Shown piece by piece: positions 12,189 through 64,000 of a stretch of 64,000 nucleotides of DNA. Origin of the DNA: Eledone cirrhosa (lineage: Eukaryota); the NCBI GenBank assembly GCA_964016885.1, contig OZ024751.1:4216001-4280000 (forward strand). Direction: 5' to 3'. Within the stretch, counting starts at the first letter, position 1; the number at the start of each line of letters is the position of its first letter. The position numbers and the translations under genes are program-made. The notes below the pieces were generated by a model. It had not been told where the DNA came from and ran no database searches. It was given only the letters and a program-made list of their open reading frames with translations.

Positions 12189-12206
12189 GTACATATATAT
12201 ATAAAC

Positions 12207-12243
<37 letters not shown>

Positions 12244-31212: not shown

Positions 31213-31532
31213 GCATGAAACGCCACATCCTTTCTCTGGCCCAGCAGTCCAATCATCACCACTGCCAACATCTCTGCCTACTACTACTACTACAACATTT
31301 TTGTCTACTGCTATGTCAAGGAATTTACCTTCTAATACCAGAACAAGAACTCTCCCTCCCACAGTCCACAAAGGTCGTCAAATCCTACCCAAACCATCAT
31401 CTACACCTCTCACAACACACACACCCACATACCCACCCACTCGAAACCCCATCATTTGCCGCTACTCTCTACGCTATAGAATATGTACGGATAGTGGCTG
31501 CAAATTCACCCATTTACCTAGGACAAAACGAT
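31213..31532 (+). mobile_element. Pro/Thr-rich coding fragment ending in a CCCH-like zinc finger, possibly LINE ORF1
   Basis: ..[33 protein letters not shown] (C-x8-C-x4-C-x3-H). Confidence 0.4.
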
Positions 31533-31540
31533 CTATCCCC

Positions 31541-32140
31541 ACGATAAAAACAAATAACGAAATGAACTGTAAAGTGTCTAGTGAAAAACTCAGTACATGT
31601 ACATATGTATACATGTGTGTATTTATATGCATACTAATACTTCCGTATACATATGTAGATGTACACTTTAACTTAATTGTTTAAGCGTCAGTCATACAAA
31701 AGTGAGTTAGAAGCGAAACGAAATTTAATTTCGTTTCGTTATTTGTTTTTATCGTTTCCGCTGAACCGGTGCGTACAATGACTCACGTTCTATGCAAATT
31801 AGTCTACCCACTACTAATTTTCATAGAAAAAGCATATAACGATATGTGCTTTTACAATTCTCCAGAGAAGCCGGAAGATGGGTAAATATTGCTGATGAGA
31901 TGTAATAACATCGAAACTAGTCCAATATTCCTGTCTGGCCCTCTGGGGAATAGAGGAAATGTGTTTCCTTGAAAACTCGTATGACTCTAAAACCCGGTCC
32001 GTCTGTGTGGTTACATACAGACTAGCTGACACTCACTGTAAAGTGTTTAGTGAAAAACTCAGTACATGTACATATGTATACATGTGTGTATTTATATGCA
32101 TACTAATACTTCCGTATACATATGTAGATGTACAACTTAA
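31541..32140 (+). mobile_element. Dispersed retrozyme-like element, ~1.2 monomers of a 469-bp unit; diverged relative of the 470-bp satellite
   Basis: ~99-bp direct repeat at 31566 and 32035 (offset 469). Octamer 31792-31799, hammerhead 31885-31929, 26-bp inverted piece at 31541-31566. Confidence 0.75.
31858..31950 (+). ncRNA. Type I hammerhead ribozyme with extended stem I
   Basis: aatattg-CTGATGA-gatgt-aata-acatc-GAAA-ctag-TC-caatatt. GUC triplet, predicted cut after 31922. Distal stems gccgga/tctggc and ttctccagag/ctctggggaa. Confidence 0.88.
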
Positions 32141-32595
32141 TTATATATATATGTATATATATATATTTATATATATATGTATATATATATATTTATATAT
32201 ATATGTATATATATATGTATATATATATGTATATATATGTATATATATATATTTATATATATATGTATATGTATATATATTTATATATATATGTATATAT
32301 ATGTATATATATATATTTATATATATATGTATATATATGTATATATATATATGTATATATATGTGTATATATATATTTATATATATATGTATATATATGT
32401 ATATATATATATGTATATATATGTGTATATATATATTTATATATATATGTATATATATGTATATATATATATTTATATATATGTATATATATGTATATAT
32501 ATATGTATATATATATATTTATATATATATGTATATTTATATATATATGTATATATATGTATATATATATATTCATATATATATGTATATATATG

Positions 32596-32773: not shown

Positions 32774-33598
32774 CATTCCGGAACCAACAAATGGTATTAC
32801 GTCGGATGTACTGCAACTTCTTTCAAGGCTCGCCTATACCAACATTGATCTTCGATCAGGCACGAGAAAATGCGCTCTGTAACAACCCTCGCCGATAAAG
32901 CCTGGCAGCTCCGGAGGAACAATCAAGCATTCAACGTCGGTAAACAAACTTTTGAACAGCAATATTGAACGTTCTCTATACTGTAACCATCGTTTGAAAA
33001 CGACTTTTTCTTTTTTTAAATGCATATAATGTTACCTCTTTACACCACCGTTTGCAAATTTCTGTTTTATATGTTTATACACAAGATATGGCTTTCTATA
33101 ATAATAGTACTAAACACTGTTTTCTGGACCCCTTTAGAAATAACCTGCTACTATAATAGCTCCAACAACTTGTCTGTGACACTGTACCACTTTGACCCCT
33201 TTAACTAAATTTTCTCCGAACAACACCACTGGAAGAATTTACTTTTCCCCGCCAACCCTAACACGCCTCATTAAGCTAACTGCTGCCAAAACATTCTCCC
33301 CTTACAATCTCTACTAGTCTGACAGTCTTAAATCCTAAGACTCCCTCCACCTTACTCACTTCCCTCTTCCCCTTCTCTTCCTACCTCCTTCTTTATCTTT
33401 TATCTAGTGTATAAAATATTTTCATATCATTCCAATACAAAGGTCTGACGACATGGTGTATTTGCTTACAGTGTACCTTCGGTTTATGATAATATTTTTA
33501 TATTATTCAGATAGCGAGGTATAGGTAACCCATACACTATAGAAACAATTGTTACCTAATAAATTCTGTATACCCGCATTTCCATTTCATAAACTTCT

Positions 33599-39171: not shown

Positions 39172-39207
<36 letters not shown>

Positions 39208-39493
39208 AATTGAAACAAAATGAAAACGAAATTTCATTTCTCACTCTTAGTATGGCACTTACTTAAATGTAAGTATGCATGTATACGTACATACATATAT
39301 GTATACAGACGTACAGTAGCATGCACATATATATATATATATATATACACATATATATACATATGCATACAGGTACACATACATATATGCACGTATCAGT
39401 TTAGCGGCGCTAACGTCGCTTTGTTCGTTTGTAAACAAACTGAACAGCCTGAATTTATGCCATACGGTGTTAAGTCAACCACGTCACCTTTTT

Positions 39494-39580
39494 GTTCAAC
39501 ACTGACACAGGAACGATGTACTAGTTTCAAGCTTGTTAGCTATCATCAGCACCGTTTACCCATCTGCCAGATAGTTGAAC
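39494..39580 (-). ncRNA. Type I hammerhead ribozyme of monomer 1 (recurs every ~470 bp)
   Basis: Minus strand: aacggtg-CTGATGA-t-agct-aaca-agct-t-GAAA-ctag-TA-catcgtt. GUA triplet, predicted cut between 39519 and 39518. Distal stems ctggca/tgtcag and gttcaac/gttgaac. Confidence 0.88.
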
Positions 39581-39629
39581 GTTCGAAAGTATATACTTTC
39601 CTTATGAAAATTAACGGCTGAGCAGCCTA

Positions 39630-39637
39630 ATTTGCAT
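39630..39637 (-). promoter_or_regulatory. Octamer motif ATGCAAAT, once per monomer
   Basis: Exact match 88 bp upstream of CTGATGA. Also present 100 bp upstream of CTGATGA in the diverged relative (31792-31799). Confidence 0.5.
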
Positions 39638-42146
39638 ATTGAGTGAGTTAAATCGGTCAGGCATACCGAAAACGATAAATTGAAACAAAATGAAAACGAA
39701 ATTTCATTTCTCACTCTTAGTATGGCACTTACTTAAATGTAAGTATGCATGTATACGTACATACATATATGTATACAGACGTACAGTAGCATGCACATAT
39801 ATATATATATATATATACACATATATATACATATGCATACAGGTACACATACATATATGCACGTATCAGTTTAGCGGCGCTAACGTCGCTTTGTTCGTTT
39901 GTAAACAAACTGAACAGCCTGAATTTATGCCATACGGTGTTAAGGCAACCACGTCACCTTTTTGTTCAACACTGACACAGGAACGATGTACTAGTTTCAA
40001 GCTTGTTAGCTATCATCAGCACCGTTTACCCATCTGCCAGATAGTTGAACGTTCGAAAGTATATACTTTCCTTATGAAAATTAACGGCTGAGCAGCCTAA
40101 TTTGCATATTGAGTGAGTTAAATCGGTCAGGCATACCGAAAACGATAAATTGAAACAAAATGAAAACGAAATTTCATTTCTCACTCTTAGTATGGCACTT
40201 ACTTAAATGTAAGTATGCATGTATACGTACATACATATATGTATACAGACGTACAGTAGCATGCACATATATATATATATATGTATACACATATATATAC
40301 ATATGCATACAGGTACACATACATATATGCACGTATCAGTTTAGCGGCGCTAACGTCGCTTTGTTCGTTTGTAAACAAACTGAACAGCCTGAATTTATGC
40401 CATACGGTGTTAAGGCAACCACGTCACCTTTTTGTTCAACACTGACACAGGAACGATGTACTAGTTTCAAGCTTGTTAGCTATCATCAGCACCGTTTACC
40501 CATCTGCCAGATAGTTGAACGTTCGAAAGTATATACTTTCCTTATGAAAATTAACGGCTGAGCAGCCTAATTTGCATATTGAGTGAGTTAAATCGGTCAG
40601 GCATACCGAAAACGATAAATTGAAACAAAATGAAAACGAAATTTCATTTCTCACTCTTAGTATGGCACTTACTTAAATGTAAGTATGCATGTATACGTAC
40701 ATACATATATGTATACAGACGTACAGTAGCATGCACATATATATATATATATATATACACATATATATACATATGCATACAGGTACACATACATATATGC
40801 ACGTATCAGTTTAGCGGCGCTAACGTCGCTTTGTTCGTTTGTAAACAAACTGAACAGCCTGAATTTATGCCATACGGTGTTAAGGCAACCACGTCACCTT
40901 TTTGTTCAACACTGACACAGGAACGATGTACTAGTTTCAAGCTTGTTAGCTATCATCAGCACCGTTTACCCATCTGCCAGATAGTTGAACGTTCGAAAGT
41001 ATATACTTTCCTTATGAAAATTAACGGCTGAGCAGCCTAATTTGCATATTGAGTGAGTTAAATCGGTCAGGCATACCGAAAACGATAAATTGAAACAAAA
41101 TGAAAACGAAATTTCATTTCTCACTCTTAGTATGGCACTTACTTAAATGTAAGTATGCATGTATACGTACATACATATATGTATACAGACGTACAGTAGC
41201 ATGCACATATATATATATATATGTATACACATATATATACATATGCATACAGGTACACATACATATATGCACGTATCAGTTTAGCGGCGCTAACGTCGCT
41301 TTGTTCGTTTGTAAACAAACTGAACAGCCTGAATGTATGCCATACGGTGTTAAGGCAACCACGTCACCTTTTTGTTCAACACTGACACAGGAACGATGTA
41401 CTAGTTTCAAGCTTGTTAGCTATCATCAGCACCGTTTACCCATCTGCCAGATAGTTGAACGTTCGAAAGTATATACTTTCCTTATGAAAATTAACGGCTG
41501 AGCAGCCTAATTTGCATATTGAGTGAGTTAAATCGGTCAGGCATACCGAAAACGATAAATTGAAACAAAATGAAAACGAAATTTCATTTCTCACTCTTAG
41601 TATGGCACTTACTTAAATGTAAGTATGCATGTATACGTACATACATATATGTATACAGACGTACAGTAGCATGCACATATATATATATATATATATACAC
41701 ATATATATACATATGCATACAGGTACACATACATATATGCACGTATCAGTTTAGCGGCGCTAACGTCGCTTTGTTCGTTTGTAAACAAACTGAACAGCCT
41801 GAATTTATGCCATACGGTGTTAAGGCAACCACGTCACCTTTTTGTTCAACACTGACACAGGAACGATGTACTAGTTTCAAGCTTGTTAGCTATCATCAGC
41901 ACCGTTTACCCATCTGCCAGATAGTTGAACGTTCGAAAGTATATACTTTCCTTATGAAAATTAACGGCTGAGCAGCCTAATTTGCATATTGAGTGAGTTA
42001 AATCGGTCAGGCATACCGAAAACGATAAATTGAAACAAAATGAAAACGAAATTTCATTTCTCACTCTTAGTATGGCACTTACTTAAATGTAAGTATGCAT
42101 GTATACGTACATACATATATGTATACAGACGTACAGTAGCATGCAC

Positions 42147-42177
<31 letters not shown>

Positions 42178-43550
42178 TATACATATGCATACAGGTACAC
42201 ATACATATATGCACGTATCAGTTTAGCGGCGCTAACGTCGCTTTGTTCGTTTGTAAACAAACTGAACAGCCTGAATTTATGCCATACGGTGTTAAGGCAA
42301 CCACGTCACCTTTTTGTTCAACACTGACACAGGAACGATGTACTAGTTTCAAGCTTGTTAGCTATCATCAGCACCGTTTACCCATCTGCCAGATAGTTGA
42401 ACGTTCGAAAGTATATACTTTCCTTATGAAAATTAACGGCTGAGCAGCCTAATTTGCATATTGAGTGAGTTAAATCGGTCAGGCATACCGAAAACGATAA
42501 ATTGAAACAAAATGAAAACGAAATTTCATTTCTCACTCTTAGTATGGCACTTACTTAAATGTAAGTATGCATGTATACGTACATACATATATGTATACAG
42601 ACGTACAGTAGCATGCACATATATATATATATATGTATACACATATATATACATATGCATACAGGTACACATACATATATGCACGTATCAGTTTAGCGGC
42701 GCTAACGTCGCTTTGTTCGTTTGTAAACAAACTGAACAGCCTGAATTTATGCCATACGGTGTTAAGGCAACCACGTCACCTTTTTGTTCAACACTGACAC
42801 AGGAACGATGTACTAGTTTCAAGCTTGTTAGCTATCATCAGCACCGTTTACCCATCTGCCAGATAGTTGAACGTTCGAAAGTATATACTTTCCTTATGAA
42901 AATTAACGGCTGAGCAGCCTAATTTGCATATTGAGTGAGTTAAATCGGTCAGGCATACCGAAAACGATAAATTGAAACAAAATGAAAACGAAATTTCATT
43001 TCTCACTCTTAGTATGGCACTTACTTAAATGTAAGTATGCATGTATACGTACATACATATATGTATACAGACGTACAGTAGCATGCACATATATATATAT
43101 ACACATATATATACATATGCATACAGGTACACATACATATATGCACGTATCAGTTTAGCGGCGCTAACGTCGCTTTGTTCGTTTGTAAACAAACTGAACA
43201 GCCTGAATTTATGCCATACGGTGTTAAGGCAACCACGTCACCTTTTTGTTCAACACTGACACAGGAACGATGTACTAGTTTCAAGCTTGTTAGCTATCAT
43301 CAGCACCGTTTACCCATCTGCCAGATAGTTGAACGTTCGAAAGTATATACTTTCCTTATGAAAATTAACGGCTGAGCAGCCTAATTTGCATATTGAGTGA
43401 GTTAAATCGGTCAGGCATACCGAAAACGATAAATTGAAACAAAATGAAAACGAAATTTCATTTCTCACTCTTAGTATGGCACTTACTTAAATGTAAGTAT
43501 GCATGTATACGTACATACATATATGTATACAGACGTACAGTAGCATGCAC

Positions 43551-43581
<31 letters not shown>

Positions 43582-44019
43582 TATACATATGCATACAGGT
43601 ACACATACATATATGCACGTATCAGTTTAGCGGCGCTAACGTCGCTTTGTTCGTTTGTAAACAAACTGAACAGCCTGAATTTATGCCATACGGTGTTAAG
43701 GCAACCACGTCACCTTTTTGTTCAACACTGACACAGGAACGATGTACTAGTTTCAAGCTTGTTAGCTATCATCAGCACCGTTTACCCATCTGCCAGATAG
43801 TTGAACGTTCGAAAGTATATACTTTCCTTATGAAAATTAACGGCTGAGCAGCCTAATTTGCATATTGAGTGAGTTAAATCGGTCAGGCATACCGAAAACG
43901 ATAAATTGAAACAAAATGAAAACGAAATTTCATTTCTCACTCTTAGTATTGCACTTACTTAAATGTAAGTATGCATGTATACGTACATACATATATGTAT
44001 ACAGACGTACAGTAGCATG

Positions 44020-44059
<40 letters not shown>

Positions 44060-47000
44060 TATACATATGCATACAGGTACACATACATATATGCACGTAT
44101 CAGTTTAGCGGCGCTAACGTCGCTTTGTTCGTTTGTAAACAAACTGAACAGCCTGAATTTATGCCATACGGTGTTAAGGCAACCACGTCACCTTTTTGTT
44201 CAACACTGACACAGGAACGATGTACTAGTTTCAAGCTTGTTAGCTATCATCAGCACCGTTTACCCATCTGCCAGATAGTTGAACGTTCGAAAGTATATAC
44301 TTTCCTTATGAAAATTAACGGCTGAGCAGCCTAATTTGCATATTGAGTGAGTTAAATCGGTCAGGCATACCGAAAACGATAAATTGAAACAAAATGAAAA
44401 CGAAATTTCATTTCTCACTCTTAGTATGGCACTTACTTAAATGTAAGTATGCATGTATACGTACATACATATATGTATACAGACGTACAGTAGCATGCAC
44501 ATATATATATATATATATACACACATATATATACATATGCATACAGGTACACATACATATATGCACGTATCAGTTTAGCGGCGCTAACGTCGCTTTGTTC
44601 GTTTGTAAACAAACTGAACAGCCTGAATTTATGCCATACGGTGTTAAGGCAACCACGTCACCTTTTTGTTCAACACTGACACAGGAACGATGTACTAGTT
44701 TCAAGCTTGTTAGCTATCATCAGCACCGTTTACCCATCTGCCAGATAGTTGAACGTTCGAAAGTATATACTTTCCTTATGAAAATTAACGGCTGAGCAGC
44801 CTAATTTGCATATTGAGTGAGTTAAATCGGTCAGGCATACCGAAAACGATAAATTGAAACAAAATGAAAACGAAATTTCATTTCTCACTCTTAGTATGGC
44901 ACTTACTTAAATGTAAGTATGCATGTATACGTACATACATATATGTATACAGACGTACAGTAGCATGCACATATATATATATATATGTATACACATATAT
45001 ATACATATGCATACAGGTACACATACGTATATGCACGTATCAGTTTAGCGGCGCTAACGTCGCTTTGTTCGTTTGTAAACAAACTGAACAGCCTGAATTT
45101 ATGCCATACGGTGTTAAGGCAACCACGTCACCTTTTTGTTCAACACTGACACAGGAACGATGTACTAGTTTCAAGCTTGTTAGCTATCATCAGCACCGTG
45201 TACCCATCTGCCAGATAGTTGAACGTTCGAAAGTATATACTTTCCTTATGAAAATTAACGGCTGAGCAGCCTAATTTGCATATTGAGTGAGTTAAATCGG
45301 TCAGGCATACCGAAAACGATAAATTGAAACAAAATGAAAACGAAATTTCATTTCTCACTCTTAGTATGGCACTTACTTAAATGTAAGTATGCATGTATAC
45401 GTACATACATATATGTATACAGACGTACAGTAGCATGCACATATATATATATATATATATACACATATATATACATATGCATACAGGTACACATACATAT
45501 ATGCACGTATCAGTTTAGCGGCGCTAACGTCGCTTTGTTCGTTTGTAAACAAACTGAACAGCCTGAATTTATGCCATACGGTGTTAAGGCAACCACGTCA
45601 CCTTTTTGTTCAACACTGACACAGGAACGATGTACTAGTTTCAAGCTTGTTAGCTATCATCAGCACCGTTTACCCATCTGCCAGATAGTTGAACGTTCGA
45701 AAGTATATACTTTCCTTATGAAAATTAACGGCTGAGCAGCCTAATTTGCATATTGAGTGAGTTAAATCGGTCAGGCATACCGAAAACGATAAATTGAAAC
45801 AAAATGAAAACGAAATTTCATTTCTCACTCTTAGTATGGCACTTACTTAAATGTAAGTATGCATGTATACGTACATACATATATGTATACAGACGTACAG
45901 TAGCATGCACATATATATATATATATATACACACATATATATACATATGCATACAGGTACACATACATATATGCACGTATCAGTTTAGCGGCGCTAACGT
46001 CGCTTTGTTCGTTTGTAAACAAACTGAACAGCCTGAATTTATGCCATACGGTGTTAAGGCAACCACGTCACCTTTTTGTTCAACACTGACACAGGAACGA
46101 TGTACTAGTTTCAAGCTTGTTAGCTATCATCAGCACCGTTTACCCATCTGCCAGATAGTTGAACGTTCGAAAGTATATACTTTCCTTATGAAAATTAACG
46201 GCTGAGCAGCCTAATTTGCATATTGAGTGAGTTAAATCGGTCAGGCATACCGAAAACGATAAATTGAAACAAAATGAAAACGAAATTTCATTTCTCACTC
46301 TTAGTATGGCACTTACTTAAATGTAAGTATGCATGTATACGTACATACATATATGTATACAGACGTACAGTAGCATGCACATATATATATATATATGTAT
46401 ACACATATATATACATATGCATACAGGTACACATACGTATATGCACGTATCAGTTTAGCGGCGCTAACGTCGCTTTGTTCGTTTGTAAACAAACTGAACA
46501 GCCTGAATTTATGCCATACGGTGTTAAGGCAACCACGTCACCTTTTTGTTCAACACTGACACAGGAACGATGTACTAGTTTCAAGCTTGTTAGCTATCAT
46601 CAGCACCGTGTACCCATCTGCCAGATAGTTGAACGTTCGAAAGTATATACTTTCCTTATGAAAATTAACGGCTGAGCAGCCTAATTTGCATATTGAGTGA
46701 GTTAAATCGGTCAGGCATACCGAAAACGATAAATTGAAACAAAATGAAAACGAAATTTCATTTCTCACTCTTAGTATGGCACTTACTTAAATGTAAGTAT
46801 GCATGTATACGTACATACATATATGTATACAGACGTACAGTAGCATGCACATATATATATATATATATATACACATATATATACATATGCATACAGGTAC
46901 ACATACATATATGCACGTATCAGTTTAGCGGCGCTAACGTCGCTTTGTTCGTTTGTAAACAAACTGAACAGCCTGAATTTATGCCATACGGTGTTAAGGC

Positions 47001-47322
47001 AACCACGTCACCTTTTTGTTCAACACTGACACAGGAACGATGTACTAGTTTCAAGCTTGTTAGCTATCATCAGCACCGTTTACCCATCTGCCAGATAGTT
47101 GAACGTTCGAAAGTATATACTTTCCTTATGAAAATTAACGGCTGAGCAGCCTAATTTGCATATTGAGTGAGTTAAATCGGTCAGGCATACCGAAAACGAT
47201 AAATTGAAACAAAATGAAAACGAAATTTCATTTCTCACTCTTAGTATGGCACTTACTTAAATGTAAGTATGCATGTATACGTACATACATATATGTATAC
47301 AGACGTACAGTAGCATGCACAC

Positions 47323-47355
<33 letters not shown>

Positions 47356-48735
47356 TATACATATGCATACAGGTACACATACATATATGCACGTATCAGT
47401 TTAGCGGCGCTAACGTCGCTTTGTTCGTTTGTAAACAAACTGAACAGCCTGAATTTATGCCATACGGTGTTAAGGCAACCACGTCACCTTTTTGTTCAAC
47501 ACTGACACAGGAACGATGTACTAGTTTCAAGCTTGTTAGCTATCATCAGCACCGTTTACCCATCTGCCAGATAGTTGAACGTTCGAAAGTATATACTTTC
47601 CTTATGAAAATTAACGGCTGAGCAGCCTAATTTGCATATTGAGTGAGTTAAATCGGTCAGGCATACCGAAAACGATAAATTGAAACAAAATTAAAACGAA
47701 ATTTCATTTCTCACTCTTAGTATGGCACTTACTTAAATGTAAGTATGCATGTATACGTACATACATATATGTATACAGACGTACAGTAGCATGCACACAT
47801 ATATATATATATATATATACACATATATATACATATGCATACAGGTACACATACATATATGCACGTATCAGTTTAGCGGCGCTAACGTCGCTTTGTTCGT
47901 TTGTAAACAAACTGAACAGCCTGAATTTATGCCATACGGTGTTAAGGCAACCACGTCACCTTTTTGTTCAACACTGACACAGGAACGATGTACTAGTTTC
48001 AAGCTTGTTAGCTATCATCAGCACCGTTTACCCATCTGCCAGATAGTTGAACGTTCGAAAGTATATACTTTCCTTATGAAAATTAACGGCTGAGCAGCCT
48101 AATTTGCATATTGAGTGAGTTAAATCGGTCAGGCATACCGAAAACGATAAATTGAAACAAAATGAAAACGAAATTTCATTTCTCACTCTTAGTATGGCAC
48201 TTACTTAAATGTAAGTATGCATGTATACGTACATACATATATGTATACAGACGTACAGTAGCATGCACATATATATATATATATATATACACATATATAT
48301 ACATATGCATATAGGTACACATACATATATGCACGTATCAGTTTAGCGGCGCTAACGTCGCTTTGTTCGTTTGTAAACAAACTGAACAGCCTGAATTTAT
48401 GCCATACGGTGTTAAGGCAACCACGTCACCTTTTTGTTCAACACTGACACAGGAACGATGTACTAGTTTCAAGCTTGTTAGCTATCATCAGCACCGTTTA
48501 CCCATCTGCCAGATAGTTGAACGTTCGAAAGTATATACTTTCCTTATGAAAATTAACGGCTGAGCAGCCTAATTTGCATATTGAGTGAGTTAAATCGGTC
48601 AGGCATACCGAAAACGATAAATTGAAACAAAATGAAAACGAAATTTCATTTCTCACTCTTAGTATGGCACTTACTTAAATGTAAGTATGCATGTATACGT
48701 ACATACATATATGTATACAGACGTACAGTAGCATG

Positions 48736-48775
<40 letters not shown>

Positions 48776-49213
48776 TATACATATGCATACAGGTACACAT
48801 ACATATATGCACGTATCAGTTTAGCGGCGCTAACGTCGCTTTGTTCGTTTGTAAACAAACTGAACAGCCTGAATTTATGCCATACGGTGTTAAGGCAACC
48901 ACGTCACCTTTTTGTTCAACACTGACACAGGAACGATGTACTAGTTTCAAGCTTGTTAGCTATCATCAGCACCGTTTACCCATCTGCCAGATAGTTGAAC
49001 GTTCGAAAGTATATACTTTCCTTATGAAAATTAACGGCTGAGCAGCCTAATTTGCATATTGAGTGAGTTAAATCGGTCAGGCATACCGAAAACGATAAAT
49101 TGAAACAAAATGAAAACGAAATTTCATTTCTCACTCTTAGTATGGCACTTACTTAAATGTAAGTATGCATGTATACGTACATACATATATGTATACAGAC
49201 GTACAGTAGCATG

Positions 49214-49255
<42 letters not shown>

Positions 49256-50166
49256 TATACATATGCATACAGGTACACATACATATATGCACGTATCAGT
49301 TTAGCGGCGCTAACGTCGCTTTGTTCGTTTGTAAACAAACTGAACAGCCTGAATTTATGCCATACGGTGTTAAGGCAACCACGTCACCTTTTTGTTCAAC
49401 ACTGACACAGGAACGATGTACTAGTTTCAAGCTTGTTAGCTATCATCAGCACCGTTTACCCATCTGCCAGATAGTTGAACGTTCGAAAGTATATACTTTC
49501 CTTATGAAAATTAACGGCTGAGCAGCCTAATTTGCATATTGAGTGAGTTAAATCGGTCAGGCATACCGAAAACGATAAATTGAAACAAAATGAAAACGAA
49601 ATTTCATTTCTCACTCTTAGTATGGCACTTACTTAAATGTAAGTATGCATGTATACGTACATACATATATGTATACAGACGTACAGTAGCATGCACATAT
49701 ATATATATATATATATACACATATATATACATATGCATACAGGTACACATACATATATGCACGTATCAGTTTAGCGGCGCTAACGTCGCTTTGTTCGTTT
49801 GTAAACAAACTGAACAGCCTGAATTTATGCCATACGGTGTTAAGGCAACCACGTCACCTTTTTGTTCAACACTGACACAGGAACGATGTACTAGTTTCAA
49901 GCTTGTTAGCTATCATCAGCACCGTTTACCCATCTGCCAGATAGTTGAACGTTCGAAAGTATATACTTTCCTTATGAAAATTAACGGCTGAGCAGCCTAA
50001 TTTGCATATTGAGTGAGTTAAATCGGTCAGGCATACCGAAAACGATAAATTGAAACAAAATGAAAACGAAATTTCATTTCTCACTCTTAGTATGGCACTT
50101 ACTTAAATGTAAGTATGCATGTATACGTACATACATATATGTATACAGACGTACAGTAGCATGCAC

Positions 50167-50197
<31 letters not shown>

Positions 50198-50638
50198 TAT
50201 ACATATGCATACAGGTACACATACATATATGCACGTATCAGTTTAGCGGCGCTAACGTCGCTTTGTTCGTTTGTAAACAAACTGAACAGCCTGAATTTAT
50301 GCCATACGGTGTTAAGGCAACCACGTCACCTTTTTGTTCAACACTGACACAGGAACGATGTACTAGTTTCAAGCTTGTTAGCTATCATCAGCACCGTTTA
50401 CCCATCTGCCAGATAGTTGAACGTTCGAAAGTATATACTTTCCTTATGAAAATTAACGGCTGAGCAGCCTAATTTGCATATTGAGTGAGTTAAATCGGTC
50501 AGGCATACCGAAAACGATAAATTGAAACAAAATGAAAACGAAATTTCATTTCTCACTCTTAGTATGGCACTTACTTAAATGTAAGTATGCATGTATACGT
50601 ACATACATATATGTATACAGACGTACAGTAGCATGCAC

Positions 50639-50669
<31 letters not shown>

Positions 50670-51576
50670 TATACATATGCATACAGGTACACATACATAT
50701 ATGCACGTATCAGTTTAGCGGCGCTAACGTCGCTTTGTTCGTTTGTAAACAAACTGAACAGCCTGAATTTATGCCATACGGTGTTAAGGCAACCACGTCA
50801 CCTTTTTGTTCAACACTGACACAGGAACGATGTACTAGTTTCAAGCTTGTTAGCTATCATCAGCACCGTTTACCCATCTGCCAGATAGTTGAACGTTCGA
50901 AAGTATATACTTTCCTTATGAAAATTAACGGCTGAGCAGCCTAATTTGCATATTGAGTGAGTTAAATCGGTCAGGCATACCGAAAACGATAAATTGAAAC
51001 AAAATGAAAACGAAATTTCATTTCTCACTCTTAGTATGGCACTTACTTAAATGTAAGTATGCATGTATACGTACATACATATATGTATACAGACGTACAG
51101 TAGCATGCACATATATATATATATATATATACACATATATATACATATGCATACAGGTACACATACATATATGCACGTATCAGTTTAGCGGCGCTAACGT
51201 CGCTTTGTTCGTTTGTAAACAAACTGAACAGCCTGAATTTATGCCATACGGTGTTAAGGCAACCACGTCACCTTTTTGTTCAACACTGACACAGGAACGA
51301 TGTACTAGTTTCAAGCTTGTTAGCTATCATCAGCACCGTTTACCCATCTGCCAGATAGTTGAACGTTCGAAAGTATATACTTTCCTTATGAAAATTAACG
51401 GCTGAGCAGCCTAATTTGCATATTGAGTGAGTTAAATCGGTCAGGCATACCGAAAACGATAAAATGAAACAAAATGAAAACGAAATTTCATTTCTCACTC
51501 TTAGTATGGCACTTACTTAAATGTAAGTATGCATGTATACGTACATACATATATGTATACAGACGTACAGTAGCAT

Positions 51577-51615
<39 letters not shown>

Positions 51616-54600
51616 TATACATATGCATACAGGTACACATACATATATGCACGTATCAGTTTAGCGGCGCTAACGTCGCTTTGTTCGTTTGTAAACAAAC
51701 TGAACAGCCTGAATTTATGCCATACGGTGTTAAGGCAACCACGTCACCTTTTTGTTCAACACTGACACAGGAACGATGTACTAGTTTCAAGCTTGTTAGC
51801 TATCATCAGCACCGTTTACCCATCTGCCAGATAGTTGAACGTTCGAAAGTATATACTTTCCTTATGAAAATTAACGGCTGAGCAGCCTAATTTGCATATT
51901 GAGTGAGTTAAATCGGTCAGGCATACCGAAAACGATAAATTGAAACAAAATGAAAACGAAATTTCATTTCTCACTCTTAGTATGGCACTTACTTAAATGT
52001 AAGTATGCATGTATACGTACATACGTATATGTATACAGACGTACAGTAGCATGCACATATATATATATATATATATACACATATATATACATATGCATAC
52101 AGGTACACATACATATATGCACGTATCAGTTTAGCGGCGCTAACGTCGCTTTGTTCGTTTGTAAACAAACTGAACAGCCTGAATTTATGCCATACGGTGT
52201 TAAGGCAACCACGTCACCTTTTTGTTCAACACTGACACAGGAACGATGTACTAGTTTCAAGCTTGTTAGCTATCATCAGCACCGTTTACCCATCTGCCAG
52301 ATAGTTGAACGTTCGAAAGTATATACTTTCCTTATGAAAATTAACGGCTGAGCAGCCTAATTTGCATATTGAGTGAGTTAAATCGGTCAGGCATACCGAA
52401 AACGATAAATTGAAACAAAATGAAAACGAAATTTCATTTCTCACTCTTAGTATGGCACTTACTTAAATGTAAGTATGCATGTATACGTACATACATATAT
52501 GTATACAGACGTACAGTAGCATGCACATATATATATATATACACATATATATACATATGCATACAGGTACACATACATATATGCACGTATCAGTTTAGCG
52601 GCGCTAACGTCGCTTTGTTCGTTTGTAAACAAACTGAACAGCCTGAATTTATGCCATACGGTGTTAAGGCAACCACGTCACCTTTTTGTTCAACACTGAC
52701 ACAGGAACGATGTACTAGTTTCAAGCTTGTTAGCTATCATCAGCACCGTTTACCCATCTGCCAGATAGTTGAACGTTCGAAAGTATATACTTTCCTTATG
52801 AAAATTAACGGCTGAGCAGCCTAATTTGCATATTGAGTGAGTTAAATCGGTCAGGCATACCGAAAACGATAAATTGAAACAAAATGAAAACGAAATTTCA
52901 TTTCTCACTCTTAGTATGGCACTTACTTAAATGTAAGTATGCATGTATACGTACATACGTATATGTATACAGACGTACAGTAGCATGCACATATATATAT
53001 ATATATATATACACATATATATACATATGCATACAGGTACACATACATATATGCACGTATCAGTTTAGCGGCGCTAACGTCGCTTTGTTCGTTTGTAAAC
53101 AAACTGAACAGCCTGAATTTATGCCATACGGTGTTAAGGCAACCACGTCACCTTTTTGTTCAACACTGACACAGGAACGATGTACTAGTTTCAAGCTTGT
53201 TAGCTATCATCAGCACCGTTTACCCATCTGCCAGATAGTTGAACGTTCGAAAGTATATACTTTCCTTATGAAAATTAACGGCTGAGCAGCCTAATTTGCA
53301 TATTGAGTGAGTTAAATCGGTCAGGCATACCGAAAACGATAAATTGAAACAAAATGAAAACGAAATTTCATTTCTCACTCTTAGTATGGCACTTACTTAA
53401 ATGTAAGTATGCATGTATACGTACATACATATATGTATACAGACGTACAGTAGCATGCACATATATATATATATATGTATACACATATATATACATATGC
53501 ATACAGGTACACATACATATATGCACGTATCAGTTTAGCGGCGCTAACGTCGCTTTGTTCGTTTGTAAACAAACTGAACAGCCTGAATTTATGCCATACG
53601 GTGTTAAGGCAACCACGTCACCTTTTTGTTCAACACTGACACAGGAACGATGTACTAGTTTCAAGTTTGTTAGCTATCATCAGCACCGTTTACCCATCTG
53701 CCAGATAGTTGAACGTTCGAAAGTATATACTTTCCTTATGAAAATTAACGGCTGAGCAGCCTAATTTGCATATTGAGTGAGTTAAATCGGTCAGGCATAC
53801 CGAAAACGATAAATTGAAACAAAATGAAAACGAAATTTCATTTCTCACTCTTAGTATGGCACTTACTTAAATGTAAGTATGCATGTATACGTACATACAT
53901 ATATGTATACAGACGTACAGTAGCATGCACATATATATATATATACACATATATATACATATGCATACAGGTACACATACATATATGCACGTATCAGTTT
54001 AGCGGCGCTAACGTCGCTTTGTTCGTTTGTAAACAAACTGAACAGCCTGAATTTATGCCATACGGTGTTAAGGCAACCACGTCACCTTTTTGTTCAACAC
54101 TGACACAGGAACGATGTACTAGTTTCAAGCTTGTTAGCTATCATCAGCACCGTTTACCCATCTGCCAGATAGTTGAACGTTCGAAAGTATATACTTTCCT
54201 TATGAAAATTAACGGCTGAGCAGCCTAATTTGCATATTGATTGAGTTAAATCGGTCAGGCATACCGAAAACGATAAATTGAAACAAAATGAAAACGAAAT
54301 TTCATTTCTCACTCTTAGTATGGCACTTACTTAAATGTAAGTATGCATGTATACGTACATACATATATGTATACAGACGTACAGTAGCATGCACATATAT
54401 ATATATATATATATACACATATATATACATATGCATACAGGTACACATACATATATGCACGTATCAGTTTAGCGGCGCTAACGTCGCTTTGTTCGTTTGT
54501 AAACAAACTGAACAGCCTGAATTTATGCCATACGGTGTTAAGGCAACCACGTCACCTTTTTGTTCAACACTGACACAGGAACGATGTACTAGTTTCAAGC

Positions 54601-56273
54601 TTGTTAGCTATCATCAGCACCGTTTACCCATCTGCCAGATAGTTGAACGTTCGAAAGTATATACTTTCCTTATGAAAATTAACGGCTGAGCAGCCTAATT
54701 TGCATATTGAGTGAGTTAAATCGGTCAGGCATACCGAAAACGATAAATTGAAACAAAATGAAAACGAAATTTCATTTCTCACTCTTAGTATGGCACTTAC
54801 TTAAATGTAAGTATGCATGTATACGTACATACATATATGTATACAGACGTACAGTAGCATGCACATATATATATATATATGTATACACATATATATACAT
54901 ATGCATACAGGTACACATACATATATGCACGTATCAGTTTAGCGGCGCTAACGTCGCTTTGTTCGTTTGTAAACAAACTGAACAGCCTGAATTTATGCCA
55001 TACGGTGTTAAGGCAACCACGTCACCTTTTTGTTCAACACTGACACAGGAACGATGTACTAGTTTCAAGCTTGTTAGCTATCATCAGCACCGTTTACCCA
55101 TCTGCCAGATAGTTGAACGTTCGAAAGTATATACTTTCCTTATGAAAATTAACGGCTGAGCAGCCTAATTTGCATATTGAGTGAGTTAAATCGGTCAGGC
55201 ATACCGAAAACGATAAATTGAAACAAAATGAAAACGAAATTTCATTTCTCACTCTTAGTATGGCACTTACTTAAATGTAAGTATGCATGTATACGTACAT
55301 ACATATATGTATACAGACGTACAGTAGCATGCACACATATATATATATATATATATACACATATATATACATATGCATACAGGTACACATACATATATGC
55401 ACGTATCAGTTTAGCGGCGCTAACGTCGCTTTGTTCGTTTGTAAACAAACTGAACAGCCTGAATTTATGCCATACGGTGTTAAGGCAACCACGTCACCTT
55501 TTTGTTCAACACTGACACAGGAACGATGTACTAGTTTCAAGCTTGTTAGCTATCATCAGCACCGTTTACCCATCTGCCAGATAGTTGAACGTTCGAAAGT
55601 ATATACTTTCCTTATGAAAATTAACGGCTGAGCAGCCTAATTTGCATATTGAGTGAGTTAAATCGGTCAGGCATACCGAAAACGATAAATTGAAACAAAA
55701 TGAAAACGAAATTTCATTTCTCACTCTTAGTATGGCACTTACTTAAATGTAAGTATGCATGTATACGTACATACATATATGTATACAGACGTACAGTAGC
55801 ATGCACATATATATATATATATATATACACATATATATACATATGCATATAGGTACACATACATATATGCACGTATCAGTTTAGCGGCGCTAACGTCGCT
55901 TTGTTCGTTTGTAAACAAACTGAACAGCCTGAATTTATGCCATACGGTGTTAAGGCAACCACGTCACCTTTTTGTTCAACACTGACACAGGAACGATGTA
56001 CTAGTTTCAAGCTTGTTAGCTATCATCAGCACCGTTTACCCATCTGCCAGATAGTTGAACGTTCGAAAGTATATACTTTCCTTATGAAAATTAACGGCTG
56101 AGCAGCCTAATTTGCATATTGAGTGAGTTAAATCGGTCAGGCATACCGAAAACGATAAATTGAAACAAAATGAAAACGAAATTTCATTTCTCACTCTTAG
56201 TATGGCACTTACTTAAATGTAAGTATGCATGTATACGTACATACATATATGTATACAGACGTACAGTAGCATG

Positions 56274-56313
<40 letters not shown>

Positions 56314-56751
56314 TATACATATGCATACAGGTACACATACATATATGCACGTATCAGTTTAGCGGCGCTAACGTCGCTTTGTTCGTTTGTAAACAAACTG
56401 AACAGCCTGAATTTATGCCATACGGTGTTAAGGCAACCACGTCACCTTTTTGTTCAACACTGACACAGGAACGATGTACTAGTTTCAAGCTTGTTAGCTA
56501 TCATCAGCACCGTTTACCCATCTGCCAGATAGTTGAACGTTCGAAAGTATATACTTTCCTTATGAAAATTAACGGCTGAGCAGCCTAATTTGCATATTGA
56601 GTGAGTTAAATCGGTCAGGCATACCGAAAACGATAAATTGAAACAAAATGAAAACGAAATTTCATTTCTCACTCTTAGTATGGCACTTACTTAAATGTAA
56701 GTATGCATGTATACGTACATACATATATGTATACAGACGTACAGTAGCATG

Positions 56752-56793
<42 letters not shown>

Positions 56794-57704
56794 TATACAT
56801 ATGCATACAGGTACACATACATATATGCACGTATCAGTTTAGCGGCGCTAACGTCGCTTTGTTCGTTTGTAAACAAACTGAACAGCCTGAATTTATGCCA
56901 TACGGTGTTAAGGCAACCACGTCACCTTTTTGTTCAACACTGACACAGGAACGATGTACTAGTTTCAAGCTTGTTAGCTATCATCAGCACCGTTTACCCA
57001 TCTGCCAGATAGTTGAACGTTCGAAAGTATATACTTTCCTTATGAAAATTAACGGCTGAGCAGCCTAATTTGCATATTGAGTGAGTTAAATCGGTCAGGC
57101 ATACCGAAAACGATAAATTGAAACAAAATGAAAACGAAATTTCATTTCTCACTCTTAGTATGGCACTTACTTAAATGTAAGTATGCATGTATACGTACAT
57201 ACATATATGTATACAGACGTACAGTAGCATGCACATATATATATATATATATATACACATATATATACATATGCATACAGGTACACATACATATATGCAC
57301 GTATCAGTTTAGCGGCGCTAACGTCGCTTTGTTCGTTTGTAAACAAACTGAACAGCCTGAATTTATGCCATACGGTGTTAAGGCAACCACGTCACCTTTT
57401 TGTTCAACACTGACACAGGAACGATGTACTAGTTTCAAGCTTGTTAGCTATCATCAGCACCGTTTACCCATCTGCCAGATAGTTGAACGTTCGAAAGTAT
57501 ATACTTTCCTTATGAAAATTAACGGCTGAGCAGCCTAATTTGCATATTGAGTGAGTTAAATCGGTCAGGCATACCGAAAACGATAAATTGAAACAAAATG
57601 AAAACGAAATTTCATTTCTCACTCTTAGTATGGCACTTACTTAAATGTAAGTATGCATGTATACGTACATACATATATGTATACAGACGTACAGTAGCAT
57701 GCAC

Positions 57705-57735
<31 letters not shown>

Positions 57736-58176
57736 TATACATATGCATACAGGTACACATACATATATGCACGTATCAGTTTAGCGGCGCTAACGTCGCT
57801 TTGTTCGTTTGTAAACAAACTGAACAGCCTGAATTTATGCCATACGGTGTTAAGGCAACCACGTCACCTTTTTGTTCAACACTGACACAGGAACGATGTA
57901 CTAGTTTCAAGCTTGTTAGCTATCATCAGCACCGTTTACCCATCTGCCAGATAGTTGAACGTTCGAAAGTATATACTTTCCTTATGAAAATTAACGGCTG
58001 AGCAGCCTAATTTGCATATTGAGTGAGTTAAATCGGTCAGGCATACCGAAAACGATAAATTGAAACAAAATGAAAACGAAATTTCATTTCTCACTCTTAG
58101 TATGGCACTTACTTAAATGTAAGTATGCATGTATACGTACATACATATATGTATACAGACGTACAGTAGCATGCAC

Positions 58177-58207
<31 letters not shown>

Positions 58208-59114
58208 TATACATATGCATACAGGTACACATACATATATGCACGTATCAGTTTAGCGGCGCTAACGTCGCTTTGTTCGTTTGTAAACAAACTGAACAGC
58301 CTGAATTTATGCCATACGGTGTTAAGGCAACCACGTCACCTTTTTGTTCAACACTGACACAGGAACGATGTACTAGTTTCAAGCTTGTTAGCTATCATCA
58401 GCACCGTTTACCCATCTGCCAGATAGTTGAACGTTCGAAAGTATATACTTTCCTTATGAAAATTAACGGCTGAGCAGCCTAATTTGCATATTGAGTGAGT
58501 TAAATCGGTCAGGCATACCGAAAACGATAAATTGAAACAAAATGAAAACGAAATTTCATTTCTCACTCTTAGTATGGCACTTACTTAAATGTAAGTATGC
58601 ATGTATACGTACATACATATATGTATACAGACGTACAGTAGCATGCACATATATATATATATATATATACACATATATATACATATGCATACAGGTACAC
58701 ATACATATATGCACGTATCAGTTTAGCGGCGCTAACGTCGCTTTGTTCGTTTGTAAACAAACTGAACAGCCTGAATTTATGCCATACGGTGTTAAGGCAA
58801 CCACGTCACCTTTTTGTTCAACACTGACACAGGAACGATGTACTAGTTTCAAGCTTGTTAGCTATCATCAGCACCGTTTACCCATCTGCCAGATAGTTGA
58901 ACGTTCGAAAGTATATACTTTCCTTATGAAAATTAACGGCTGAGCAGCCTAATTTGCATATTGAGTGAGTTAAATCGGTCAGGCATACCGAAAACGATAA
59001 AATGAAACAAAATGAAAACGAAATTTCATTTCTCACTCTTAGTATGGCACTTACTTAAATGTAAGTATGCATGTATACGTACATACATATATGTATACAG
59101 ACGTACAGTAGCAT

Positions 59115-59153
<39 letters not shown>

Positions 59154-62100
59154 TATACATATGCATACAGGTACACATACATATATGCACGTATCAGTTT
59201 AGCGGCGCTAACGTCGCTTTGTTCGTTTGTAAACAAACTGAACAGCCTGAATTTATGCCATACGGTGTTAAGGCAACCACGTCACCTTTTTGTTCAACAC
59301 TGACACAGGAACGATGTACTAGTTTCAAGCTTGTTAGCTATCATCAGCACCGTTTACCCATCTGCCAGATAGTTGAACGTTCGAAAGTATATACTTTCCT
59401 TATGAAAATTAACGGCTGAGCAGCCTAATTTGCATATTGAGTGAGTTAAATCGGTCAGGCATACCGAAAACGATAAATTGAAACAAAATGAAAACGAAAT
59501 TTCATTTCTCACTCTTAGTATGGCACTTACTTAAATGTAAGTATGCATGTATACGTACATACGTATATGTATACAGACGTACAGTAGCATGCACATATAT
59601 ATATATATATATATACACATATATATACATATGCATACAGGTACACATACATATATGCACGTATCAGTTTAGCGGCGCTAACGTCGCTTTGTTCGTTTGT
59701 AAACAAACTGAACAGCCTGAATTTATGCCATACGGTGTTAAGGCAACCACGTCACCTTTTTGTTCAACACTGACACAGGAACGATGTACTAGTTTCAAGC
59801 TTGTTAGCTATCATCAGCACCGTTTACCCATCTGCCAGATAGTTGAACGTTCGAAAGTATATACTTTCCTTATGAAAATTAACGGCTGAGCAGCCTAATT
59901 TGCATATTGAGTGAGTTAAATCGGTCAGGCATACCGAAAACGATAAATTGAAACAAAATGAAAACGAAATTTCATTTCTCACTCTTAGTATGGCACTTAC
60001 TTAAATGTAAGTATGCATGTATACGTACATACATATATGTATACAGACGTACAGTAGCATGCACATATATATATATATATGTATACACATATATATACAT
60101 ATGCATACAGGTACACATACATATATGCACGTATCAGTTTAGCGGCGCTAACGTCGCTTTGTTCGTTTGTAAACAAACTGAACAGCCTGAATTTATGCCA
60201 TACGGTGTTAAGGCAACCACGTCACCTTTTTGTTCAACACTGACACAGGAACGATGTACTAGTTTCAAGTTTGTTAGCTATCATCAGCACCGTTTACCCA
60301 TCTGCCAGATAGTTGAACGTTCGAAAGTATATACTTTCCTTATGAAAATTAACGGCTGAGCAGCCTAATTTGCATATTGAGTGAGTTAAATCGGTCAGGC
60401 ATACCGAAAACGATAAATTGAAACAAAATGAAAACGAAATTTCATTTCTCACTCTTAGTATGGCACTTACTTAAATGTAAGTATGCATGTATACGTACAT
60501 ACATATATGTATACAGACGTACAGTAGCATGCACATATATATATATATACACATATATATACATATGCATACAGGTACACATACATATATGCACGTATCA
60601 GTTTAGCGGCGCTAACGTCGCTTTGTTCGTTTGTAAACAAACTGAACAGCCTGAATTTATGCCATACGGTGTTAAGGCAACCACGTCACCTTTTTGTTCA
60701 ACACTGACACAGGAACGATGTACTAGTTTCAAGCTTGTTAGCTATCATCAGCACCGTTTACCCATCTGCCAGATAGTTGAACGTTCGAAAGTATATACTT
60801 TCCTTATGAAAATTAACGGCTGAGCAGCCTAATTTGCATATTGATTGAGTTAAATCGGTCAGGCATACCGAAAACGATAAATTGAAACAAAATGAAAACG
60901 AAATTTCATTTCTCACTCTTAGTATGGCACTTACTTAAATGTAAGTATGCATGTATACGTACATACATATATGTATACAGACGTACAGTAGCATGCACAT
61001 ATATATATATATATATATACACATATATATACATATGCATACAGGTACACATACATATATGCACGTATCAGTTTAGCGGCGCTAACGTCGCTTTGTTCGT
61101 TTGTAAACAAACTGAACAGCCTGAATTTATGCCATACGGTGTTAAGGCAACCACGTCACCTTTTTGTTCAACACTGACACAGGAACGATGTACTAGTTTC
61201 AAGCTTGTTAGCTATCATCAGCACCGTTTACCCATCTGCCAGATAGTTGAACGTTCGAAAGTATATACTTTCCTTATGAAAATTAACGGCTGAGCAGCCT
61301 AATTTGCATATTGAGTGAGTTAAATCGGTCAGGCATACCGAAAACGATAAATTGAAACAAAATGAAAACGAAATTTCATTTCTCACTCTTAGTATGGCAC
61401 TTACTTAAATGTAAGTATGCATGTATACGTACATACATATATGTATACAGACGTACAGTAGCATGCACATATATATATATATATGTATACACATATATAT
61501 ACATATGCATACAGGTACACATACATATATGCACGTATCAGTTTAGCGGCGCTAACGTCGCTTTGTTCGTTTGTAAACAAACTGAACAGCCTGAATTTAT
61601 GCCATACGGTGTTAAGGCAACCACGTCACCTTTTTGTTCAACACTGACACAGGAACGATGTACTAGTTTCAAGCTTGTTAGCTATCATCAGCACCGTTTA
61701 CCCATCTGCCAGATAGTTGAACGTTCGAAAGTATATACTTTCCTTATGAAAATTAACGGCTGAGCAGCCTAATTTGCATATTGAGTGAGTTAAATCGGTC
61801 AGGCATACCGAAAACGATAAATTGAAACAAAATGAAAACGAAATTTCATTTCTCACTCTTAGTATGGCACTTACTTAAATGTAAGTATGCATGTATACGT
61901 ACATACATATATGTATACAGACGTACAGTAGCATGCACATATATATATATATATATATACACATATATATACATATGCATACAGGTACACATACATATAT
62001 GCACGTATCAGTTTAGCGGCGCTAACGTCGCTTTGTTCGTTTGTAAACAAACTGAACAGCCTGAATTTATGCCATACGGTGTTAAGGCAACCACGTCACC

Positions 62101-64000
62101 TTTTTGTTCAACACTGACACAGGAACGATGTACTAGTTTCAAGCTTGTTAGCTATCATCAGCACCGTTTACCCATCTGCCAGATAGTTGAACGTTCGAAA
62201 GTATATACTTTCCTTATGAAAATTAACGGCTGAGCAGCCTAATTTGCATATTGAGTGAGTTAAATCGGTCAGGCATACCGAAAACGATAAATTGAAACAA
62301 AATGAAAACGAAATTTCATTTCTCACTCTTAGTATGGCACTTACTTAAATGTAAGTATGCATGTATACGTACATACATATATGTATACAGACGTACAGTA
62401 GCATGCACATATATATATATATATGTATACACATATATATACATATGCATACAGGTACACATACATATATGCACGTATCAGTTTAGCGGCGCTAACGTCG
62501 CTTTGTTCGTTTGTAAACAAACTGAACAGCCTGAATTTATGCCATACGGTGTTAAGGCAACCACGTCACCTTTTTGTTCAACACTGACACAGGAACGATG
62601 TACTAGTTTCAAGCTTGTTAGCTATCATCAGCACCGTTTACCCATCTGCCAGATAGTTGAACGTTCGAAAGTATATACTTTCCTTATGAAAATTAACGGC
62701 TGAGCAGCCTAATTTGCATATTGAGTGAGTTAAATCGGTCAGGCATACCGAAAACGATAAATTGAAACAAAATGAAAACGAAATTTCATTTCTCACTCTT
62801 AGTATGGCACTTACTTAAATGTAAGTATGCATGTATACGTACATACATATATGTATACAGACGTACAGTAGCATGCACATATATATATATATACACATAT
62901 ATATACATATGCATACAGGTACACATACATATATGCACGTATCAGTTTAGCGGCGCTAACGTCGCTTTGTTCGTTTGTAAACAAACTGAACAGCCTGAAT
63001 TTATGCCATACGGTGTTAAGGCAACCACGTCACCTTTTTGTTCAACACTGACACAGGAACGATGTACTAGTTTCAAGCTTGTTAGCTATCATCAGCACCG
63101 TTTACCCATCTGCCAGATAGTTGAACGTTCGAAAGTATATACTTTCCTTATGAAAATTAACGGCTGAGCAGCCTAATTTGCATATTGATTGAGTTAAATC
63201 GGTCAGGCATACCGAAAACGATAAATTGAAACAAAATGAAAACGAAATTTCATTTCTCACTCTTAGTATGGCACTTACTTAAATGTAAGTATGCATGTAT
63301 ACGTACATACATATATGTATACAGACGTACAGTAGCATGCACATATATATATATATATATATACACATATATATACATATGCATACAGGTACACATACAT
63401 ATATGCACGTATCAGTTTAGCGGCGCTAACGTCGCTTTGTTCGTTTGTAAACAAACTGAACAGCCTGAATTTATGCCATACGGTTTTAAGGCAACCACGT
63501 CACCTTTTTGTTCAACACTGACACAGGAACGATGTACTAGTTTCAAGCTTGTTAGCTATCATCAGCACCGTTTACCCATCTGCCAGATAGTTGAACGTTC
63601 GAAAGTATATACTTTCCTTATGAAAATTAACGGCTGAGCAGCCTAATTTGCATATTGAGTGAGTTAAATCGGTCAGGCATACCGAAAACGATAAATTGAA
63701 ACAAAATGAAAACGAAATTTCATTTCTCACTCTTAGTATGGCACTTACTTAAATGTAAGTATGCATGTATACGTACATACATATATGTATACAGACGTAC
63801 AGTAGCATGCACATATATATATATATATATATACACATATATATACATATGCATACAGGTACACATACATATATGCACGTATCAGTTTAGCGGCGCTAAC
63901 GTCGCTTTGTTCGTTTGTAAACAAACTGAACAGCCTGAATTTATGCCATACGGTGTTAAGGCAACCACGTCACCTTTTTGTTCAACACTGACACAGGAAC

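Follow-up and report, generated by a model that had tools for sequence, protein, structure and literature searches.

The window analysed here is a stretch of 64,000 nucleotides from the 3.0-Gb genome of Eledone cirrhosa (contig OZ024751.1, positions 4,216,001 to 4,280,000). A short repeat island at 31541-32142 is related to a satellite array further along the window, and the locus raises the question of what kind of element the island is and how it was inserted. The repeat unit is 469 bp long and carries a type I hammerhead; the island contains 1.23 such units and lies between two TA/TG microsatellites. It is probably a young copy of a non-autonomous, hammerhead-bearing retroelement (a non-LTR retrozyme), and the enzyme that inserted it was probably that of a Penelope-like element (PLE).

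Anatomy of the island

The features of the island and its surroundings are as follows (window coordinates).

31541..31566, minus strand: short inverted arm, unit positions 165-190, 3' end to the left; 26 bp, 96% identical to the reverse complement of the unit
31566..32142, plus strand: long arm, truncated on the 5' side to 1.23 units; its 3' end is at site A and is immediately preceded by a 5-bp deletion
31566..32034, plus strand: single 469-bp unit; one difference from the family majority and a strong fold (z -11)
31593..31664, plus strand: long TA/TG-rich hairpin; second copy at 32062-32133; the satellite-family counterpart varies in length
31678..31683, plus strand: site A (unit 113-118), first fixed 3' end of family insertions and putative start of reverse transcription
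31679..31752, plus strand: 'tail' that separates site A from site B (31752, unit 187) and contains a hairpin of 12-13 bp at ~31712-31740
31790..31802, plus strand: TATGCAAATTAG block; intact U6 and U6atac genes of the same genome have a matching element at -76 to -78
31814..31826, minus strand: imperfect inverted copy of the TATGCAAATTAG block; the two form a hairpin
31835..31839, plus strand: TATA-like motif, 43 nt past the start of the octamer (46-47 in U6 genes)
31858..31950, plus strand: type I hammerhead with extended stem I; core CTGATGA at 31892-31898, stem II at 31899-31912
31916..31921, plus strand: palindrome ACTAGT, enclosed by the 2-bp stem III of the hammerhead; cleavage predicted after C31922
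32143..32773, no strand: (TA)n-type microsatellite, putative insertion target
32777..33017, plus strand: broken fragment of a Neptune-type PLE GIY-YIG endonuclease, a separate element (two PLE proteins of the same genome match it in tblastn, E 1.7e-8 and 1.3e-6)
39205..64000, minus strand: satellite array of the sister family, with 88 hammerheads; it forms the long arm of an insertion with two arms and has its 3' end at site B (39205)

An earlier note on this DNA had described a direct repeat of ~99 bp at 31566 and 32035. The repeat is real and measures 106 bp (31566-31671 against 32035-32140, 97% identical, period 469). Since it is the start of the next unit, it does not argue for an ordinary LTR-type element. 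The 26-bp inverted arm had been overlooked; 31541-31566 is element and not flank, and the 3' end of this arm lies 3 nt beyond site B. No target duplication was seen at the island. Arrays of the unit contain only short open frames, and GC content is below 50%. No reverse transcriptase (RT) or GIY-YIG open reading frame was found within the island unit, which is therefore not an autonomous PLE.

The Neptune-type fragment begins directly after the TA tract 3' of the island. Pairwise BLASTP with a 24-aa flank piece by the island gave no match; tblastn over a longer stretch matched PLE protein. The left flank (31213-31545) holds an open frame with a CCCH-like cysteine/histidine pattern, for which there was no match among the loci compared. 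Elsewhere in the window, tRNA-like matches at 7354-7411 and 34202-34259, both on the minus strand, are probably SINE heads. LINE-type RT/endonuclease remnants of at least two kinds, broken by long TA/TG tracts, occupy 1-2600, 9184-12552 and 27175-29400. Further hammerhead-core-like motifs were noticed at 8353, 15026 and 22173, all on the minus strand. Repeats resembling those at 8353 and 15026 also occur in loci L007, L021 and L209; these may be the terminal repeats of other PLE families.

Hammerhead structure and family size

At curated thresholds, an Rfam search of the window returned no hammerhead. Hammerhead_HH9 (RF02275) matched 31874-31944 with an E value of 7e-6 and 31.8 bits, under the 52-bit gathering cut-off. 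This Rfam family has the same type I layout and bulged, extended stem I, whereas stem III of the island is down to 2 bp around the palindrome. Rfam miRNA matches in the window were rejected, as they correspond to the TA hairpin.

The island unit was aligned with the reverse-complemented satellite unit. All of the blocks that the earlier note had listed as common to the two were present. With the TA hairpin excluded, 198 of 281 aligned positions were identical (70%), and the local alignment score was 144 against a maximum of 37 in 500 shuffles. Fold stability over shuffles gave z -11.0 for the island unit and z -8.6 for the satellite unit, with a similar order of hairpins. Unit length, which the note had taken as further evidence, carries no such weight: 469 and 470 bp result from offsetting indels, and relatives measure 434, 467, 484, 526 and 538 bp.

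The note had also described helices that change in sequence while still pairing. Across four helices, 10 of 18 pairs differ between island and satellite, and nine of these ten still pair, seven with changes on both sides (P=0.003 against a random-substitution null). This part of the claim stood; two others did not. The outer stems ttctccagag and gttcaac each fold but are one column out of register in the alignment, and so do not represent column-wise covariation. Satellite stem II lacks its core-adjacent closing pair (U.U).

A structural alignment was assembled from 16 hand-picked copies of five subfamilies; a short-stem II pattern gave 30 loci, several of which were chance matches and were excluded. 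In this alignment 95.3% of cells pair, against 29-51% with slid partners, and RNAalifold independently recovered stems I, II and the distal stem. Double changes occur in 9 of 20 pairs, nearly all on the single branch that separates two lineages, and are thus not of R-scape grade. The number of pairs with a change on both sides was reached in 237 of 500 shuffles. The closing position of stem II is G-C in only 6 of the 16 copies; the pair is missing from satellite and older-family copies, and older copies carry a GUU triplet. The hammerhead core is invariant across the aligned copies and its stems are compensatory. Weakly in line with this, the catalytic core was hit by none of 21 transmitted alleles. 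The hammerhead helices, the 16-copy alignment and RNAalifold support the view, put forward in the note, that RNA structure, here that of the hammerhead, is under selection across the family.

Stem III, with 2 bp and an invariant palindrome, was not formed in predicted monomer folds, and co-folding of two hammerheads yielded no palindrome-paired dimer. Hammerhead motifs with such a short stem III can cleave as dimers.

At least 290 matches to the island were found in the genome, most of the long ones 98-99% identical. The hammerhead pattern common to the island and satellite families has 9,993 exact genome matches (control, 1), the older family has 1,444 more, and an octamer-hairpin motif has 24,711 (control, 0). 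If each marks one unit, ~25,000 motif copies make up roughly 0.4% of the genome. Island and satellite families both occur as dispersed copies and as arrays. The island is accordingly one of many copies in a large family of its own and not, as had been thought, simply a diverged dispersed sister of the satellite.

Insertion ends and Penelope-like elements

Island-family insertions have their 3' ends at two fixed sites, A (unit 113-119) and B (187), 74 nt apart, and their 5' ends scattered across the whole unit, from position 2 to 459. Insertions were chosen by long matches or an intact hammerhead and are biased to long arms crossing the ribozyme. A genome-order sample was made of all island-family clusters in the first 100 hammerhead-pattern matches, on C1, and comprised 12 insertions after one duplicate was merged. 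An end at B was present in 12/12, and two head-to-head arms ending at A and B in 9/12; two of the remainder have one aberrant end and one is single-armed. Among the top-match insertions, 16 of the 18 with two arms end at A and B, one at B and B with mirrored flanks, and one has an intermediate end; five others are single-armed and one is unclear. Exceptions are L004 (B and B, mirrored flanks), L028, L097 and L101 (one aberrant end each) and L022 (mixed alleles). In the satellite family, 12 of 24 loci end at A and B at homologous sites (166-170 and 225), eight are single-armed and end at A or B, and four have unassigned ends. The tail between the two sites is 55-59 nt in that family.

Most insertion ends adjoin (TA)n or AT-rich sequence. 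Target duplications are unreadable in TA-rich sites; of eight insertions checked, two (L027 and L098) lie in clearly non-repetitive sequence and have duplications of ~13 and 16 bp. The permuted ends that the earlier note proposed to look for in dispersed copies were not found, as the 3' ends are fixed at two sites and only the 5' ends scatter. The constantly shared ends of an ordinary LTR or DNA element, which it named as the opposite outcome, were likewise not seen.

These ends bear on whether the family is ordinary satellite DNA, a MITE, a solo LTR or a rolling-circle DNA element, its hairpins being DNA-level palindromes. Much of the unit is palindromic in both the island and the satellite folds, and a 43-kb array exists, as such an origin would allow. 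Fixed 3' ends with scattered 5' ends, two alternative 3' ends, inverted arms, duplications of 13-16 bp and an invariant hammerhead core with compensatory stems all speak against it, and the 106-bp repeat is only the beginning of a second unit. An origin of this kind is very improbable.

PLEs leave inverted 5'-truncated copies with a tail at one end in microsatellite targets (PMC8557442). In vitro work has attributed the tail to two internal sites at which RT starts; both strands of the target are cut and extended (PMC11167929). Two cDNAs joined head to head would leave a tail at one end only, as in the island family. The E. cirrhosa genome holds a young family that encodes a 713-aa RT+GIY-YIG protein, with 109 scored matches at 95-100% identity to the query. 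For this protein, searches of Pfam and of PDB sequences gave no match; it was assigned to PLEs by motifs and by Atlas neighbours with HTH_animal, RVT_1 and GIY-YIG, and its 'Neptune-type' label was taken, without a tree, from linker cysteines read against PMC8557442. At 25 loci, copies of this PLE are 96-98% identical, lie in (TA)n targets and have 3' ends mostly at two sites 86 nt apart. Complementary inverted arms were present in five of six loci with both ends visible, two of the five probably being one duplicated locus. Two 3' ends, inverted arms and (TA)n targets are the signature of PLEs and are found on the local 713-aa PLE as well, so the island is very likely a PLE-type insertion of a retrozyme. 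The 713-aa PLE is a candidate for the partner enzyme; other PLE families are also present in the genome.

EN+ Neptune-type PLEs as described in PMC8557442 and PMC11167929 share with the island family partial tandems, an inverted 5'-truncated arm, a one-end tail from two RT starts, AT-rich or (TA)n targets and a hammerhead in the repeat. Unlike these elements, the island unit has neither an RT nor a GIY-YIG frame, its tail is 74 nt against a published 30-40 bp, and its hammerhead is full-size with an extended stem I where theirs is minimal.

The terminal repeat of the 713-aa PLE (L198:3570-3610, also L187-L211) contains a stretch that resembles a hammerhead but has CAGAAGA where the core normally starts; its stems I and III gave no fit by eye. 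Another Neptune-type PLE, divergent from the first (~30% protein identity), has an island-family copy in its 3' non-coding region (L007:2090-3575).

The neighbouring satellite has the same layout on a larger scale. Its array runs past the window, reverses orientation near G000:C11:4296738 and reaches its other end, at site A, near 4298037; the second arm comprises 2.7 units. The 88-unit arm contains repeating variant blocks, with duplications of 2 to 11 units (units 26-36 and 37-47, for example), and 20 variants were counted over 89 units of the array. The satellite, 43 kb in all, is a single two-armed insertion that was later expanded by block duplication and still has both of its ends.

Such expansion is also part of a model proposed for vertebrate retrozymes (preprint 10.64898/2026.07.22.740005), in which the units would be pLTRs from truncated autonomous PLE insertions, amplified locally by unequal crossover and not self-transposing. 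The block duplications inside the 88-unit arm are clear, and 12 of 57 retrozyme loci contain PLE protein fragments, a count made without a control and not taken as enrichment. Against this, the units run head to tail with no open reading frame between them, and both arms of the mapped insertions contain units only. The adjoining PLE fragments are of several families, most of them separated from the units by (TA)n. Nor, among the matches listed, did the island unit resemble the terminal repeat of the young 713-aa PLE, the one Neptune-type family compared. We regard local amplification of pLTRs as improbable and PLE-type insertion of the retrozyme as the better account.

Template, candidate promoter and proposed cycle

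The predicted cleavage site is crossed by 56 of 64 arms, and 49 of 64 are longer than one unit, as the earlier note had anticipated for dispersed copies; in the genome-order sample the latter count was 16/23. A cut linear monomer would offer only 225 nt of cDNA from A and 299 nt from B. In ~137 unit reads there was no indel at the cleavage site and no pile-up of 5' ends. Arms that extend beyond one unit and across the cleavage site point to a circle or an uncut multimer as template, in agreement with the note's suggestion of reverse transcription around a circular or multimeric RNA.

Alleles were analysed in 34 insertions. Their units carry 172 singleton changes (0.27% per base, or ~1.2 per unit in typical arrays). 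Within insertions, 46 alleles are fixed and 28 are common to some units only. Thirteen alleles, in 12 of the 34 insertions, are private to one insertion yet fixed in all of its units, and 11 of these, distributed over 10 insertions, are present in both arms. At two sites that are polymorphic across the family, pairs of units from the same insertion agree in 459/459 and 509/512 cases (permutation maxima 429 and 443). This clonality favours a monomer circle over a multimer, and a circle of one unit was probably the template of both arms, judging from the allele patterns. Two ~500-nt self-closing contigs, obtained from four sequencing runs of unknown kind, were rejected as evidence of circles because tandem DNA gives the same result.

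The same PLE-type insertion could also have used a linear, multimeric RNA, transcribed from a homogeneous tandem copy and left uncut; the hammerhead would then serve RNA end processing or another step and not the formation of circles. The anole PLE does insert uncut RNA, and hammerhead mutants leave its insertion in vitro unchanged (PMC11167929). Homogeneous source arrays exist, the satellite with its few variants being one, and a clonal source array would give clonal arms too; with 34 insertions sampled, 'private' alleles may have an unseen source. On the other hand, at the singleton rate of typical arrays the copies should hold heterogeneous units, and new alleles fixed across both arms of insertions of 2-4 units need a one-unit bottleneck. 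A linear-only route cannot lengthen arms, yet arms of 14 units occur. A multimeric template is possible but the less probable choice, and the monomer circle is retained below.

An snRNA-type promoter has been reported for newt satellite 2, and host snRNA genes were therefore compared with the unit. Three distinct U6 promoters and the best U6atac gene contain a block of the TATGCAAATTAG type with at most one mismatch to the island, at -76 to -78 and with a TATA at -30; in one U6 promoter 13 letters are identical to the block of the island. No octamer-type match was present in 14/14 lower-scoring U6 copies, five other U6atac matches, 16/16 U2 loci or 5/12 top U6 loci, the last of which share a replaced upstream region. 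Shuffled units contain the octamer motif ~0.1% of the time. The distance from octamer to TATA-like motif is 42-43 nt in 7/7 units against 46-47 nt in U6/U6atac (4-5 nt short), and the block doubles as half of a hairpin. A T4 run is missing from five of seven units and present in two; shuffles match that 39-62% of the time, and depletion of T runs, as a sign of Pol III transcription, was not significant.

From these matches, the unit may carry a putative U6-type (Pol III type 3) promoter, a reading we hold only tentatively. The ATGCAAATtag block, which the earlier note counted among the shared RNA elements, is indeed shared, but a possible promoter element in the DNA is a better reading of it than RNA structure alone. 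Newt satellite 2 and the schistosome hammerhead satellite are likewise reported to combine a hammerhead and a promoter in a satellite unit (cited in PMC2220036). The newt promoter is of the snRNA type and was reported as Pol II, whereas the block of the island matches U6/U6atac, and not U2, of the same genome. Among the host genes themselves, U6/U6atac (L161-L172, L231, L173-L186) share the octamer-like element at -77 and U2 genes are without it; the five top U6 loci with a replaced upstream region lie in the C19 cluster.

The proposed cycle would begin with transcription of a tandem copy, possibly from the U6-type upstream element inside each unit. Successive hammerheads would cut the read-through RNA into 469-nt monomers, and these would circularise. 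A PLE endonuclease/RT would open an AT-rich or (TA)n site, where the two target ends would prime cDNA at the fixed internal sites A and B. Each cDNA would run a variable distance, often beyond one unit, before head-to-head joining; for priming and joining there is DNA-level evidence in the mapped ends. A single monomer circle would supply both arms. Some insertions would later grow into satellites by block duplication, as seen in the neighbouring array.

A more speculative extension, which we think rather unlikely, is that full-unit circles, cut from read-through RNA, allow the retroelement to retain a U6-type Pol III promoter located upstream, an element that is lost from ordinary retrocopies, and that a dimeric PLE enzyme primes twice per circle and so copies both arms. 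If true, the family would provide direct genomic evidence for circle-templated, twin-primed PLE transposition, and satellite arrays would be seeded by a single retrotransposition event. Movement of animal retrozymes has so far been a proposal; the island family adds nucleotide-level predictions, namely two RT start sites, one per arm, circle-like clonality, a candidate promoter and a young intact PLE frame in the same genome.

Non-LTR retrozymes of metazoans (coral, mussel, axolotl) are described in PMC7229834 as low-GC tandem units with one type I hammerhead each and without an open reading frame, LTR, PBS or PPT. The island agrees in the tandem low-GC units, the hammerhead and the lack of frame and LTR, and its family also agrees in target duplications of more than 4 bp, in thousands of copies and in coexistence with PLEs. 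The 469-bp unit is longer than the 170-400 nt given there and falls within the 51-972 bp of the vertebrate preprint (10.64898/2026.07.22.740005). Expression and circles were shown for the metazoan elements (PMC7229834), whereas the island family is known here from DNA. PMC7229834 (2020) names PLEs as strong candidate movers of retrozymes and circles as likely templates. The preprint relies on co-occurrence and terminal-repeat phylogeny and calls the mechanism open; only one of nine frog retrozyme dimers was cleaved in vitro. The insertions mapped here have two fixed 3' ends, and their arms are complementary, inverted and clonal; PMC7229834 nowhere uses the word 'inverted'. In the open-licence literature no account of the island family or of retrozyme end-mapping was found, and supplements to the preprint may list invertebrate families. 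With non-LTR retrozymes and the PLE/circle proposal already known, the new elements would appear to be this family and the unusually direct evidence from its insertion ends.

A further array was observed at L228-L229 (G000:C1:5737000-5754000). It contains ~31 homogeneous units of an older island subfamily with the GUU triplet, in a two-armed layout.
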